This document shows positions 8,002-11,350 of a stretch of DNA of 40,830 nucleotides, piece after piece. Both the position numbers and the translations under genes were made by a program. A model generated the notes under the pieces. That model made no database searches and was not told where the DNA came from. It saw nothing but the letters and a program-made list of their open reading frames with translations. Positions within the stretch are counted from its first letter, which is position 1. The number at the start of each line of letters is the position of its first letter. This DNA is from an uncultured Gammaproteobacteria bacterium. Its GTDB lineage: Bacteria > Patescibacteriota > Microgenomatia > UBA1406 > GWC2-37-13. Location: assembly GCA_964490915.1 (NCBI GenBank), contig CAZBEJ010000002.1, positions 1-40,830 on the forward strand, read 5' to 3'.

Positions 8002-8877
8002 ATGAAAAACCAAAACAGTTCAATAACAACTTCGGTAACGTTACATAATGGTATCAAAATGCCAACAATAGGATTTGGTGTCTTTCAAATCCCCAACGAA
8101 CAGACAGCGCTAGCAGTTTCTGATGCAATTAAAATTGGCTACCGCTTAATCGATACCGCTGCTTCATATAGAAACGAAAAAGGAGTTGGTCTTGCTATTA
8201 AAAATAGTGACATTCCAAGAGAAGAATTATTTATTACCAGTAAACTCTGGGTAGTGGATGTTAATTATGAAGGAGCAAAAAAAGCATTCCAAAGATCACT
8301 AGACAATTTACAACTCGATTATCTTGATCTCTACCTTATTCATCAGCCATATAATGATGTATTTGGTGCATGGAGAGCAATGGAGGAGCTTTACGAAAAA
8401 GGGAAAATAAAATCAATTGGAGTTGCTAACTTTACCAGTGCCAAATTGGTTGATTTCATTCTCAACAATAAAATTGCTCCGATTGTGAACCAGATTGAAA
8501 CGCACCCGTTTAACCAGCAAGAAGAAGCCCATAAAATTATGCAGGAATATAAAGTTCAACATCAAGGATGGGCGCCATTTGCAGAAGGGAGACATGACTT
8601 ATTTGCCAATACAACCCTTGCCGAAATAGCTAAGCAGTATGGAAAAACTACCGGTCAAGTTATCTTACGATGGAATCTGCAAAGAGGGGTGGCTATTATT
8701 CCAAAATCAACTCATAGGGAGCGTATGCAAGAAAACATTGATATTTTTGACTTTGAACTAAATGAGGTAGATATGGAAAAAATAAAAACACTGGATGAGA
8801 GTAAAGGATTGTTTGTCAATCACGAGGATCCTGAATTCGTTAAATATTTATATGCTCGCGATAAGAAAAATGAATGA
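8002..8877 (+). CDS. Aldo/keto reductase (2,5-diketo-D-gluconate reductase-like)
   Basis: 291-aa ORF. Has MPTIGFGVFQ, IDTAASYRNE, LFITSKLW (catalytic Lys), LDYLDLYLIHQP (catalytic His) and IPKSTHRERMQENIDIF, which together are the typical AKR signature set. Confidence 0.9.
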   Translation: MKNQNSSITTSVTLHNGIKMPTIGFGVFQIPNEQTALAVSDAIKIGYRLIDTAASYRNEKGVGLAIKNSDIPREELFITSKLWVVDVNYEGAKKAFQRSLDNLQLDYLDLYLIHQPYNDVFGAWRAMEELYEKGKIKSIGVANFTSAKLVDFILNNKIAPIVNQIETHPFNQQEEAHKIMQEYKVQHQGWAPFAEGRHDLFANTTLAEIAKQYGKTTGQVILRWNLQRGVAIIPKSTHRERMQENIDIFDFELNEVDMEKIKTLDESKGLFVNHEDPEFVKYLYARDKKNE

Positions 8878-9026
8878 CGCTATTTACTACTGAGTGGATT
8901 TCCCGAAAGTACTCTACGTTACTACGAGACAATCGGCCTTATTCATCCGATCAAACGAGTTCCAAGTAGCAAGCAGCGGATTTACAGTGAAGATGATGTT
9001 AATGAGGTTATTGTTTTTATGCTCTA
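8870..9026 (+). pseudogene. MerR-family regulator remnant (frameshifted near codon 7 and truncated after the HTH)
   Basis: The ATG at 8870 overlaps the AKR stop (ATGAATGA) and reads MNDAIYY then stop. Shifting one frame gives LLSGFPESTLRYYETIGLIHPIKRVPSSKQRIYSEDDVNEVIVFML then stop at 9024-9026. That is the MerR HTH core (TLRYYE.IGL ... YSEDD) without the dimerisation and effector part. Confidence 0.6.
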
Positions 9027-9035
9027 AACTCAGCA

Positions 9036-9053
9036 TGTCCAGAGGGGAGGATT
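9036..9053. repeat. 18-bp direct repeat copy A (tgtccagaggggaggatt), a displaced copy of the tRNA-Tyr 3' end
   Basis: Identical 18-mer to 9428-9445, which covers the last 16 nt of tRNA-Tyr plus 2 nt beyond its 3' end. Confidence 0.85.
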
Positions 9054-9077
9054 TGGTTCGGCGAGCTCACCACAAGC

Positions 9078-9392
9078 TCACTCGAGGTTCTCATCTCCCA
9101 GGATTTCTTCAGCAATCTTAGTGCACGTATTCATGCCTAAAGTACCGTCTATAAGCATTTGCTTCTTTGCTTTTGACCAACCCTTTAATTGTTTCTCTCT
9201 TCTTGCGGCTTGATATTTATCCTTATAACATTCACAGTAAACTAACTTAATTTGGTTAAACCGTAAAGTAAATAAAGAATTTTTATCGCGATGATTTCTG
9301 ATTCTCTGTACTAGATTATTAGTTATTCCAGTGTAATATATTTTTCTATCGCAAAGAAGCAAATAAACATACCATTTCTCAGAATTCTCCAT
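9078..9392 (-). CDS. GIY-YIG nuclease-family protein (small stand-alone, UPF0213/YhbQ-like)
   Basis: 104 aa from the internal ATG at 9392. Sequence: WYVYLLLCDRKIYYTGITNNLVQRIRNHR ... LVYCECYKDKYQAARREKQLKGWSKAKKQMLI (GIY...YIG, Arg, Glu motifs). The 142-aa track ORF was shortened because its N-terminal 38 codons are antisense to the tRNA. Confidence 0.85.
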   Translation of the reverse strand: MENSEKWYVYLLLCDRKIYYTGITNNLVQRIRNHRDKNSLFTLRFNQIKLVYCECYKDKYQAARREKQLKGWSKAKKQMLIDGTLGMNTCTKIAEEILGDENLE

Positions 9393-9427
9393 AACATTTT
9401 CTTGAGCTTGCACTGAGCTTGCCGAAG

Positions 9428-9445
9428 TGTCCAGAGGGGAGGATT
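9428..9445. repeat. 18-bp direct repeat copy B (tgtccagaggggaggatt), within and abutting the tRNA-Tyr 3' end
   Basis: Identical to 9036-9053. Confidence 0.85.
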
Positions 9446-9512
9446 CGAACCTCCGTAGGGTTACCCCGCTAGATTTACAGTCTAGTGCGATTGGCCGCTC
9501 TGCCACCTCTGG
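9430..9512 (-). tRNA. tRNA-Tyr (anticodon GUA), class II with long variable arm, no encoded CCA
   Basis: The reverse complement reads CCAGAGG-UG-GCAGAGCGGCCAAUCGC-A-CUAGA-CUGUAAA-UCUAG-CGGGGUAACCCUACG-GAGG-UUCGAAU-CCUC-CCUCUGG-A. It has a perfect 7-bp acceptor stem, 5-bp anticodon stem and 4-bp T stem. The D-loop AGCGGCCAA resembles bacterial tRNA-Tyr. The discriminator A is followed by CAC, not CCA. Confidence 0.92.
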
Positions 9513-9667
9513 TAGTCATTCTATTGTATCAAATAATCTGTCTTTAGGCACGCAAAAAACTAAGGCGAAGAAGCTATATTCCTGATTTTAGTAGTAGTAT
9601 AATACCGGAAAGGATAAGGAGGATTGCGGATATTGCAATTCATCCGAAGTGACTTTATGATAAAGCT

Positions 9668-10126
9668 ATGTGGTTTGTACACCCCGTATATGCAACCTGT
9701 CCGGCCTGCGTAGTCACCATTGGCGGTGGGCTGCTGATTGCCAAAAAACTCGGTATGGACGATCTTTTGGTTTCCATCTGGCTTTCAGGTTTTAACACCG
9801 CGTTCGCGTTTTTGATCGTATCGGGAGCAAAGAGCAGAAAAATTTTTTATTCCGTCTTGTTATCGCTGATTTTTCTGGTTTTGAACTTGTTGTATCTTTT
9901 TTTCTCCGGCCAGCTGTTTCATGCCGGAAATACGTTGTGGGGAATTGACAAGATTATTTTGGGAACGGTTGTCGGATTCATCGGATTTTTGTTTTCAGTG
10001 TATCTCGACAGACTGGTACGAAAAACCAATAAGGGAAAAGTTCTATTCCGCTATCAAAAAGTCCTGATACCGGTGTTCTTGCTTTTTATCATCACTTTGT
10101 TGTTTAATATAGGTATAGGGCATTAA
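9668..10126 (+). CDS. Small polytopic membrane protein of unknown function with a CPAC motif at the first TM helix
   Basis: 152-aa ORF with about 4 hydrophobic helices. The N-terminus VYATCPACVVTIGGGLLIA has a Cys-Pro-Ala-Cys pair. No family recognised. Confidence 0.6.
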   Translation: MWFVHPVYATCPACVVTIGGGLLIAKKLGMDDLLVSIWLSGFNTAFAFLIVSGAKSRKIFYSVLLSLIFLVLNLLYLFFSGQLFHAGNTLWGIDKIILGTVVGFIGFLFSVYLDRLVRKTNKGKVLFRYQKVLIPVFLLFIITLLFNIGIGH

Positions 10127-10154
10127 AATTTCTTTATCGGCCGTTAATGAGTCT

Positions 10155-10283
10155 ATGGACAATAAGGATGCAGTAACACAGGGGAAAAAAAATTCACGGG
10201 AAGATGCGGACGATCAATCGGACGACATATTCGGCGTGATAAATAAATTCATTAAAAAAATTTTAAAATGCTGCGGAAATTAA
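10155..10283 (+). CDS. Possible 42-aa small ORF (acidic N-terminus, amphipathic helix, C-terminal CCGN)
   Basis: Reads MDNKDAVTQGKKNSREDADDQSDDIFGVINKFIKKILKCCGN and ends 4 nt before the HypC-like ORF. No clear Shine-Dalgarno sequence. Absent from the ORF track because it is under 60 aa. Confidence 0.25.
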   Translation: MDNKDAVTQGKKNSREDADDQSDDIFGVINKFIKKILKCCGN

Positions 10284-10287
10284 TCCT

Positions 10288-10461
10288 ATGTGTTTTGTAA
10301 AGCCGATTCGGGTCAAAAAAGTTTTTGATAATTACGTCTTGTTGGAAAACGGAATCAAGGCGTATTACGAAAAAAAGGAGGGGAAATTAAAACGGAACGA
10401 TCTGGTTTTGGTATACGGAAATGTTGTTATAAATAAAATTGTTGATTATGCCCAAATCTGA
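10288..10461 (+). CDS. HypC/HupF-like hydrogenase maturation chaperone (short, 57 aa), unannotated small ORF
   Basis: Reads MCFVKPIRVKKVFDNYVLLENGIKAYYEKKEGKLKRNDLVLVYGNVVINKIVDYAQI. It has the HypC hallmark Met-Cys2 ... Pro6 (MCxxxP) and a C-terminal NDLVLVYGNVVI matching the GDYVLVHVGFAI block. It lies in the hydrogenase locus and overlaps the next gene by 14 nt. Confidence 0.6.
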   Translation: MCFVKPIRVKKVFDNYVLLENGIKAYYEKKEGKLKRNDLVLVYGNVVINKIVDYAQI

Positions 10462-11350
10462 CGGATTAAAAAAAGGATTGCTGTTTGCGTTTATTACCGC
10501 GGTTATCTCCGGATTCGCCATTTTTTACTCGAAAATTTCAGTCGCAAAAATTGACCCGTTGGTTTTGACAACGTGGAGAAATGCATTCGTGGGAGTTGTT
10601 TTCTTGCTCGGAATGGTATCATTCGGAAAATTGAAACAACTGAAAACGCTGCAGAAAAAGGATGTGATTATATTGTTGCTCATCGGCATAATCGGCGGCG
10701 GAGTTCCGTTTTACCTGTTTTTTACCGGGCTTCAGTTTATCGGCGCCCAGTCGGCAAACATTATTCATAAGTCCCTTTTTGTCTGGGTGTCGATCCTTGC
10801 GGTTGCGGTACTGGGAGAGCGTATCTCGTTCAAAACCATAGTCGCATACAGCCTGGTGTTTGCGGGAACGTTTTTCTTTGCACCCGTTAACCTTGTTTGG
10901 AATCAGGGAACGGCCATGGTGTTGGGAGCTACGCTTCTGTGGACCGTTGAAACGATTCTTTCAAAAAAAATTCTTGTACGTATCTCGTCGGAACTGGTCG
11001 GTTTTTCAAGAATGTTTGTCGGAGCATTGTTCTTGCTTGCAATGACCGCGGTTTCCGGTAAAGGAGCGGTGCTTTTTCACCTGAGTAATTCACAACTGCT
11101 AACTGTCGTCGTCGGCGGGTCGATCTTATGCGGGTATGTGTTTTTCTGGTATAGGGCGTTGAAACTGGCACCTGCCAATCTGGTAACGTTGGTTCTGAGT
11201 TTTTCCGTTGTCGTCGGATTCGTATTGAACGGTTCATTTGCCGGAGTAATTCTGAGCCGATCTGATGTACTATCGTCAGTATATATTGCCTGCGGAGTCG
11301 GGTTGGTATACCTCGCATACACTTTCCCCAAATTGCTCAGGCAATCGTGA
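10448..11350 (+). CDS. EamA/DMT-superfamily transporter (10 TM)
   Basis: About 300-aa ORF, started at the ATG at 10448 in frame with the track ORF at 10439. Shows two-fold repeated 5-TM architecture with EamA-like segments. Substrate unknown. Confidence 0.8.
   Translation: MPKSDGLKKGLLFAFITAVISGFAIFYSKISVAKIDPLVLTTWRNAFVGVVFLLGMVSFGKLKQLKTLQKKDVIILLLIGIIGGGVPFYLFFTGLQFIGAQSANIIHKSLFVWVSILAVAVLGERISFKTIVAYSLVFAGTFFFAPVNLVWNQGTAMVLGATLLWTVETILSKKILVRISSELVGFSRMFVGALFLLAMTAVSGKGAVLFHLSNSQLLTVVVGGSILCGYVFFWYRALKLAPANLVTLVLSFSVVVGFVLNGSFAGVILSRSDVLSSVYIACGVGLVYLAYTFPKLLRQS

Follow-up and report, generated by a model that had tools for sequence, protein, structure and literature searches.

What is a lone nuclease gene doing between two copies of the end of a tRNA gene? 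This question is raised by a locus in contig CAZBEJ010000002.1 (assembly GCA_964490915.1), which is deposited under the name of an uncultured Gammaproteobacteria bacterium and placed by GTDB in the Patescibacteriota. We analysed positions 1 to 40,830 of this contig, referred to below as the window. A tRNA-Tyr gene is followed there by a short segment that carries a gene for a small GIY-YIG nuclease, with an 18-nt copy of the tRNA 3' end on each side as a direct repeat. The original prediction saw in this arrangement either a minimal selfish cassette or the stump of a larger decayed island. The feature belongs to a family of minimal nuclease cassettes that recurs at tRNA 3' ends; full-text literature searches returned no description of tRNA-linked GIY-YIG cassettes, and the family is apparently unpublished. 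Comparison of related loci gives good support to the mobility of this family, and we consider the chances about even that the segment 9036-9445 would be a minimal mobile cassette spreading by homing-like break and repair.

The repeated tRNA end

The tRNA-Tyr(GTA) gene lies intact on the minus strand, at 9429-9512 according to ARAGORN and at 9430-9512 according to the Rfam model RF00005 (52.3 bits). No second tRNA-Tyr was found in the genome to which the window belongs, which is 80% complete. The repeated sequence, TGTCCAGAGGGGAGGATT, occurs in two exact copies at 9036-9053 and 9428-9445. Read on the tRNA strand (AATCCTCCCCTCTGGACA, minus), the proximal copy at 9428-9445 begins in the T-loop directly past the TTCG motif and ends with the discriminator base and 2 further nucleotides, so that it spans part of the T-loop, the 3' strand of the T-stem, the 3' strand of the acceptor stem and the discriminator. 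With the Rfam boundary, which makes A9430 the discriminator, it consists of the final 16 nt of the tRNA plus 2 nt, exactly as originally predicted. The distal copy at 9036-9053 has the same orientation (minus strand), and upstream of it we found neither the 5' half of the T-loop nor any further piece of tRNA. The two copies are the only ones in the whole 759-kb genome: a search of its 110 contigs returned no other, and the window contains no third copy even when up to 3 mismatches are allowed (0 expected from 100 shuffles). The earlier description of the repeat as a pair was thus right.

The gene between the repeats

The 374 bp between the two copies (9054-9427) contain a single open reading frame (ORF) of at least 40 residues that lies wholly inside them. 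It occupies 9078-9392 on the minus strand, in the same orientation as the tRNA, and encodes a single-domain, UPF0213-like GIY-YIG protein of 104 residues. A 75-residue ORF on the plus strand (8894-9121) merely overlaps the right edge of the cassette. Residues 6-77 of the protein match the Pfam family PF01541 (GIY-YIG) with an E-value of 3.2e-16, which is the sole Pfam match, and no NCBIfam model matches the protein. Y10, Y20, R30, H34 and E66 are invariant in an alignment with the four closest homologues. Among proteins of the PDB, 1zg2 (E 2.9e-7) and 1ywl (E 5.6e-4) align over nearly the full length. Judged by these matches, the protein is of the UPF0213/YhbQ-like single-domain type and related to BH0048/EF2693. 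Neither the ORF list nor Pfam revealed a recombinase or transposase of the DDE, HUH, serine or tyrosine type in the cassette. The earlier description of a 374-bp interval holding nothing but this gene, oriented like the tRNA and without integrase or transposase, is therefore borne out by both sources.

Paired inverted repeats at the cassette ends

What had been overlooked is that the cassette has ends of its own. At 9057-9080 and 9403-9426, immediately within the direct repeats, there are imperfect terminal inverted repeats of 24 nt, 83% complementary to each other, and each is composed of two copies of the motif (G/A)C(A/G)AGCTCA with a spacing of 11 nt. The left end (9403-9427, minus strand) reads CTTCGGCAAGCTCAGTGCAAGCTCA on the tRNA strand, with units GCAAGCTCA at 9422-9414 and 9411-9403. 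The right end (9054-9080, minus strand), which reads ..TGAGCTTGTGGTGAGCTCGCCGAACCA on the tRNA strand, is its inverted partner, whose plus-strand units are GCGAGCTCA (9061-9069) and ACAAGCTCA (9072-9080). The tips of both inverted repeats start with TTCG (TTCG(G/A)C), and the stop codon of the GIY-YIG gene falls within the right one. The cassette begins 2-3 nt beyond the discriminator base, which leaves the tRNA intact. No promoter or terminator match was detected between the tRNA and the ORF, so that the ORF is probably transcribed by read-through from the tRNA promoter.

We examined the folding of these ends. Taken singly, the left end, with z +1.2, folds no better than shuffled sequences, and the right end, with z -1.1, only weakly, which rules out a hairpin at each end alone, as found in the Ssn repeats discussed below. 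When the right end, the 18-mer and the left end are joined, a 24-bp hairpin with a tRNA-derived loop is predicted (-21 kcal/mol, z -5); this junction occurs in tandem arrays of the cassette. We also considered whether the ends belong to a described RNA family, and rejected this since an Rfam scan of 8800-9700 matched the tRNA alone. The window cassette has no other copy in its own genome according to blastn, and the left-end motif stands next to a tRNA end once in that genome, the other matches to its pattern being unrelated.

A recurrent family in Patescibacteria

The same ends occur on about 55 homologous cassettes in genomes of Patescibacteria, and about 35 of these abut the 3' end of a tRNA gene (Tyr, Asn, Gln, Glu, His or Ser), always on the same strand. 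The family was scanned in species-representative genomes, from which 64 loci were fetched, nearly all from Patescibacteria (Roizman-, Woese-, Gottesman-, Levy- and Shapirobacteria, Paceibacterota and others). A tRNA gene on the same strand lies at most 200 nt upstream in 26 of the 64 loci, and in 6 further loci it was missed by ARAGORN because a group I intron interrupts it. No cassette is antisense to its tRNA among the tRNA-linked loci. The search for cassettes at other tRNAs, to which the original prediction had pointed, thus yielded six kinds of tRNA across dozens of genomes.

An exact repeat of the tRNA end, 12-19 nt long, is present at 27 loci including that of the window (15-19 nt in 26 of them). 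It runs from the T-loop to 0-2 nt short of the left end, and the cassette measures 351-413 bp in most of these loci. Throughout the family, the first 15-22 nt of the left end, CTTCG(G/A)CAAGCTCAG, hardly vary, while the proteins are only 45-80% identical. TTCG is found at both tips, and the base that follows it is the same at both ends in 36 of 46 cassettes. Diverged homologues of the protein are numerous in 40 relatives, and the closest share the layout at other tRNAs, for instance at a tRNA-Gln with an 18-nt repeat (L003) and at a tRNA-Glu (L004) where the repeat measures 17-18 nt and another cassette, which is truncated, comes after it. More distant homologues on metagenome contigs (37-49% identity) lie near a tRNA in only 2 of 71 cases, which makes the tRNA link a trait of this subfamily rather than of small GIY-YIG genes in general. 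The earlier remark that small GIY-YIG genes are common beside tRNAs holds for the subfamily but not beyond it.

Two further observations concern these tRNA genes. At eight loci (L024, L026, L027, L072, L073, L077, L151 and L153), group I introns (Rfam RF00028, 55-90 bits) interrupt Asn-like tRNA genes about 100-500 nt upstream of a cassette at the tRNA 3' end, so that a single tRNA gene hosts selfish elements of two kinds. At L136 (G047:C52, ~1524), a solitary left-end motif (CTTCGGCAAGCTCAGTGCAAGCCC) directly follows a tRNA-Gln(CTG) and has no nuclease ORF behind it.

Gain, loss and stacking of cassettes

The presence of the cassette is patchy. About 27 tRNA-Tyr loci of relatives were examined and most are followed by unrelated DNA, the site being filled in the window's genome and at L021, L022, L050 and L052. 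The tRNA-Tyr without cassette, which the original prediction had proposed to look for, is found in most relatives including one of the same genus, where synteny on the 5' side of the tRNA (hydrogenase accessory genes) ends exactly at the tRNA 3' end. At L086, L104 and L108 we found mini-cassettes that lack the ORF but retain the left end, about 60 nt of the right end and the repeat. The repeat of the L104 mini-cassette, GAATCCATCCCTCTGGAC, exactly matches the variant of its own tRNA-Tyr, that of L086 has one C fewer than the local tRNA-Tyr and that of L108 differs by a short deletion. Cassettes also occur in tandem or stacked (L004/L071, L070, L059, L147 and L149), at several tRNAs, which indicates that the site is still usable after an insertion.

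Between some genomes, cassettes resemble each other more than their surroundings do. On two orthologous groundwater contigs (L147 and L148), the tRNA-Glu and its cassette are 97.6% identical compared to 87-89% for the flanking genes, and one of the two contigs carries an extra stacked insert. L060 and L064 can be aligned over the tRNA and cassette only, with 89.5% identity. In L027 and L028, a 438-bp cassette is 100% identical whereas the left flanks are unrelated, each genome lacking the flanks of the other. These comparisons come from related cassettes of the family, not from the window's own copy. A recurring unit of 350-410 bp, empty sites, derivatives, stacks and a similarity that is higher in the cassette than in its flanks all support the minimal selfish cassette that had been proposed.

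Selection and protein phylogeny

Within the tRNA-Tyr lineage (the window copy, L021 and L022), the ratio of nonsynonymous to synonymous substitution rates (dN/dS) of the ORF is 0.15-0.18, a value from which we conclude that the GIY-YIG gene is under purifying selection. The tree of the nuclease against tRNA identity, another comparison suggested at the outset, shows that tRNA type is clustered (23 changes compared to 31 in shuffles, a count to which 0 of 200 shuffles came down). The window copy, L021 and L022 form a strongly supported Tyr clade. Some switches of tRNA type are also seen, for example in a supported clade that mixes His and Glu.

Origin of the distal 18-mer

Several loci have unlike sequences on the two sides of the cassette. 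The distal copy of L026, L033 and L043 reads plausibly as a tRNA end, but not as that of the adjacent tRNA, and that of L022 and L052 is the other natural allele of tRNA-Tyr (CCCCCC instead of CCCCTC). The right 18-mer of L021 and of L028 forms a perfect tRNA end, of which the left flank matches just the final 7-8 nt; the 18-mer of L021 is identical to that of the window. At about 8 loci the cassette stands behind a conserved pseudo-end of about 29 nt (GGTTCTAAC...) where there is no tRNA, and only the last 6-8 nt of this pseudo-end agree with the perfect tRNA-type 18-mer across the cassette. From such loci with mismatched sides it seems that the cassette takes the 18-mer along, as a segment for attachment or homology. 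A plain 18-bp duplication of the target site was for this reason dropped as a full account and is treated below as a rival.

The pseudo-tRNA end (..AAATTTGTGCGTAAAAGGTTCTAACGTCCTCCACTAGTCTGGAC, about 29-47 nt) was located at L021:1938-1966, at L226 (G062:C8:31048-31094), at L228 (G073:C35:7830-7862) and at L090, where it directly follows a tRNA-Tyr. It occurs with or without a cassette, also where no tRNA is near, and stands on its own in two genomes; in one of these, G062, a serine recombinase gene lies about 7 kb upstream of it. A pattern search for the pseudo-site gave chance-level matches only.

How the cassette might spread

In the mechanism that we propose, the cassette would land at tRNA 3' ends without breaking the tRNA. 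The nuclease would break a cassette-free tRNA gene in or near the segment from the T-loop to the 3' end or, alternatively, would break or nick the tips of the cassette's own repeats; the TTCG motif is common to the T-loop and both tips. Repair would then copy the cassette from a cassette-bearing allele, with the conserved tRNA body providing homology on the left and the element-borne 18-mer on the right. As an outcome the tRNA would be regenerated, the 18-mer left as a direct repeat and the site open to the next insertion. Both the cleavage target and the repair route are inferred from the arrangement of the loci. Such a process would account for the constant repeat boundaries, the intact tRNA and the re-use of the site, as well as for the fidelity to the target together with spread across species and for distal copies that belong to another allele.

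A number of points weigh against this proposal. The view of the 18-mer as an attachment or homology footprint, present in the original prediction, stands for some loci with differing sides, but in most loci both repeat copies equal the local tRNA and a staggered-cut duplication fits equally well. The pseudo-end, in turn, may be the terminus of another island inserted between tRNA and cassette. The unrelated flanks of L027 and L028 could likewise reflect an island between tRNA and cassette, or the incompleteness of metagenome-assembled genomes. The exact empty site of the window locus (T-loop, 18-mer and right flank) was not found on metagenome contigs. The copies are also old: the synonymous divergence (dS) between the window copy and its nearest relatives is 0.6-0.8, no relative of the window cassette exceeds 81% identity in the genome collection or 65% on metagenome contigs, and there are no recent intragenomic copies in the three genomes G000 (that of the window), G013 and G016, whose paralogues are too diverged for DNA alignment. 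Old copies and unalignable paralogues do not fit a bursting insertion sequence, and on this evidence movement of the cassette, if it is ongoing, is rare. The protein tree was built from 101 columns and is poorly resolved. Finally, a GIY-YIG protein of 104 residues that lacks a DNA-binding domain is not known to recognise an 18-bp site; the model leaves unexplained how such a bare domain finds one tRNA, and because the tRNA is intact after insertion the nuclease would recut an essential gene unless this is protected.

The terminal inverted repeats directly inside the direct repeat would suit a true transposition, in which the cassette is joined into a staggered break, with nicks about 18 bp apart in the T-loop and 2 nt past the discriminator, and gap filling duplicates the target. 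The regular length of the repeat (15-19 nt), its uniform geometry at six tRNA types, its exact match to the local tRNA in 27 loci, down to variants such as CCATCC (L104) and GTCAG versus GTCGG (His group), the tRNA-type switches on the tree and the ORF-less derivatives with both ends, which resemble non-autonomous elements, all find a place in this scheme. It does not fit L021, L028, L026, L033 and L043, where the distal 18-mer is a valid tRNA end but not a duplicate of the other side. Moreover, several near-identical copies in one genome were not seen (G000, G013 and G016), the cassette contains no DDE, HUH, serine or tyrosine enzyme, and GIY-YIG enzymes hydrolyse DNA and are not known for strand transfer. 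We judge such transposition rather unlikely. The cassette and its 18-mer might instead be moved by a recombinase encoded elsewhere, on an island, a phage or the chromosome, with the GIY-YIG gene as cargo, addiction or defence gene. Integrases classically leave a direct repeat of a tRNA 3' end as their footprint, the joined ends would form a hairpin around a tRNA-derived loop and their junction is present in tandem arrays, and the identity of the odd loci over only the last 7-8 nt beside the left end recalls a crossover core. Other elements also use tRNA 3' ends in these genomes, as suggested by the pseudo-tRNA end about 7 kb from the serine recombinase of G062. However, no recombinase lies in or beside the cassette, a single one would need to serve six tRNA types, and the ORF is kept in nearly all copies under purifying selection, as expected if the element needs it. 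Attachment-site recombination in trans is, in our view, unlikely.

Two further explanations were weighed. Purifying selection, old divergence, the lack of recent intragenomic copies and a gap between tRNA and ORF without promoter or terminator match would all be expected of a non-mobile host gene tied to tRNA loci, for example a nuclease of repair or processing, with the repeated tRNA end acting on the co-transcribed mRNA as a signal for processing or termination. Patchy presence at the same tRNA in close relatives, decayed and ORF-less copies, stacks of cassettes and a similarity between genomes that is higher in the cassette than in its flanks make this very unlikely. The other explanation, offered as an alternative by the original prediction, is that a larger island at the tRNA-Tyr has decayed and left the GIY-YIG gene as a remnant between attL and attR. 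The DNA downstream of the tRNA-Tyr is indeed variable, with about 1.7-9.4 kb not syntenic with the same-genus genome, and a truncated MerR pseudogene ends close to the distal repeat. But about 35 tRNA 3' ends, in different genomes, have this single-gene unit of 350-410 bp with its conserved ends, an outcome on which cases of independent decay would not converge, and the inverted repeats are placed exactly at the repeat boundaries; we give the island stump hardly any credence.

Significance of the proposed homing-like cassette

Should homing-like break and repair be correct, the cassette would be about the smallest self-contained mobile DNA known in bacteria, with some 375 bp and one protein of 100 residues, and its safe and universally conserved landing site would be a neat choice. 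It would also give a biological role to the large and functionally blank group of UPF0213/Ssn-like mini GIY-YIG proteins, explain in part why gene order is unstable beside tRNA genes in the reduced genomes of the Candidate Phyla Radiation (CPR), and provide a compact nuclease with a short swappable address as a possible tool. More tentatively, and with greater doubt, we suggest a new class of autonomous mobile element whose sole protein is a GIY-YIG nuclease of about 100 residues, whose address is the 18-nt tRNA 3' end, and in which the tRNA body and the 18-mer would be portable homology arms, allowing harmless homing to the same tRNA in any species. Portable arms of this kind would explain the spread across the CPR. 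In annotation, these cassettes now pass for lone 'GIY-YIG nuclease family protein' genes, and assemblies can break at their repeats; here, several contigs end at a cassette.

Neighbourhood and other GIY-YIG loci

Outside the cassette, a remnant of a MerR-type helix-turn-helix gene lies on the plus strand at 8878-9028; it matches positions 10-45 of the 69 in the PF13411 profile (E 3e-8). A usable start codon is missing, the C-terminal part is truncated, and the remnant breaks off 7 nt short of the distal repeat. It is preceded by an intact gene for an aldo/keto reductase (8002-8877). Compared with the same-genus sequence G001:C2:1-9500 (L115), the window is syntenic over about 1120-1703 and 9429-10798, while the 7.7 kb in between differ; the G001 genes of this interval are located on contigs C61 and C87 of the window's genome. 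This break of synteny marks the tRNA-Tyr 3' end as a rearrangement breakpoint.

Further GIY-YIG genes stand beside tRNA genes. The window's own genome contains a second, different cassette (39% identity) at C10:20350-21000 on the minus strand, just upstream of a tRNA-Glu(TTC), with GC hairpins and with 18 nt of a tRNA 5' end (GGTCCCATCGTCTAGCGG) as a direct repeat on both sides. At C104:1-450, at the start of a contig, a decayed GIY-YIG gene with in-frame TGA and TAG codons stands behind a tRNA 3' end and is followed by a partial copy of the tRNA end (CGGCATCTC). At C14:3026-3173 the genes for tRNA-Arg(CCG) and tRNA-Ala(CGC) abut each other (..GACA-CCA-GGGCC..); between tRNA-Arg and tRNA-Ala, genomes of the same genus (G001, L016) and of the same family (G002, L013) carry a GIY-YIG insert of about 330-360 bp from another subfamily, with no visible direct repeat. 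In G007:C2:1-4646 (L130 and L131) we found 13 perfect tandem copies of a 357-bp unit, composed of an 82-residue GIY-YIG ORF and a tRNA-5'-like piece with GC hairpins, which end 50 nt from a tRNA-Val at the contig start. These copies may be a true array, the concatemer assembly of a small circle, or an artefact.

Comparison with known systems

The Seg genes are free-standing GIY-YIG homing endonuclease genes of T-even phages, and SegB lies in the tRNA gene cluster of T4. Like these, the cassette is a lone nuclease gene outside introns and between host genes, patchy at one site among relatives and associated with tRNA genes, and it would be expected to spread via break repair with co-conversion of flanks. 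Two traits of homing genes are found, namely presence or absence at a conserved site and a higher similarity of the element than of its flanks, the latter in the family and not for the window copy. Seg proteins, however, are about twice as long and have an added DNA-binding domain, unlike the bare domain of about 100 residues seen here; their genes have no terminal inverted repeats or duplicated target end, and they reside in phages, not in bacterial chromosomes. With the islands and prophages that integrases insert into tRNA genes, the cassette shares the direct repeat of the tRNA 3' end, the intact tRNA and a repeat that in some loci seems to be carried by the element, but it has no integrase, measures 374 bp, holds one gene and has inverted repeats at its ends. 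Terminal inverted repeats are a trait of insertion sequences, of which the transposase is absent from the cassette and near-identical copies from the genomes G000, G013 and G016. Long target-site duplications near tRNA genes also occur with casposons and other transposons (PMC4046053). Casposons have terminal inverted repeats and a target duplication of 14-15 bp, but each extends over kilobases and carries genes for a Cas1 integrase and a polymerase. The inverted repeats and a long duplication (15-19 nt here) at a tRNA 3' end are thus common to both; the duplication of the cassette, unlike theirs, is not always derived from the target.

The nearest solved structures to the cassette protein are UPF0213 proteins, and a further point of comparison is SsnA of Neisseria meningitidis, a GIY-YIG protein of 94 residues whose gene is flanked by inverted NTS/SRM repeats (PMC11893778). 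SsnA binds the repeat only as single-stranded DNA and cuts a small number of nucleotides upstream, within the flank; its authors call the architecture IS-like, that is, like an insertion sequence, and mention neither tRNA genes nor duplicated targets (PMC11893778). The cassette protein has in common with SsnA a single domain and an equal spacing of the catalytic Tyr, Tyr and Glu, and in both systems the gene lies between inverted copies of a repeat, which in the cassette are 24 nt long and conserved throughout the family. In contrast to the Ssn repeats, the cassette ends form no hairpin singly and are not dispersed in the genome, and the SRM pattern (PMC11893778) has 0 matches on both strands of the window; for these reasons the cassette is not filed as an Ssn member. 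It may nevertheless work similarly, and cutting of the SsnA type, transferred to this locus, would fall at the junctions between the cassette and the tRNA ends.

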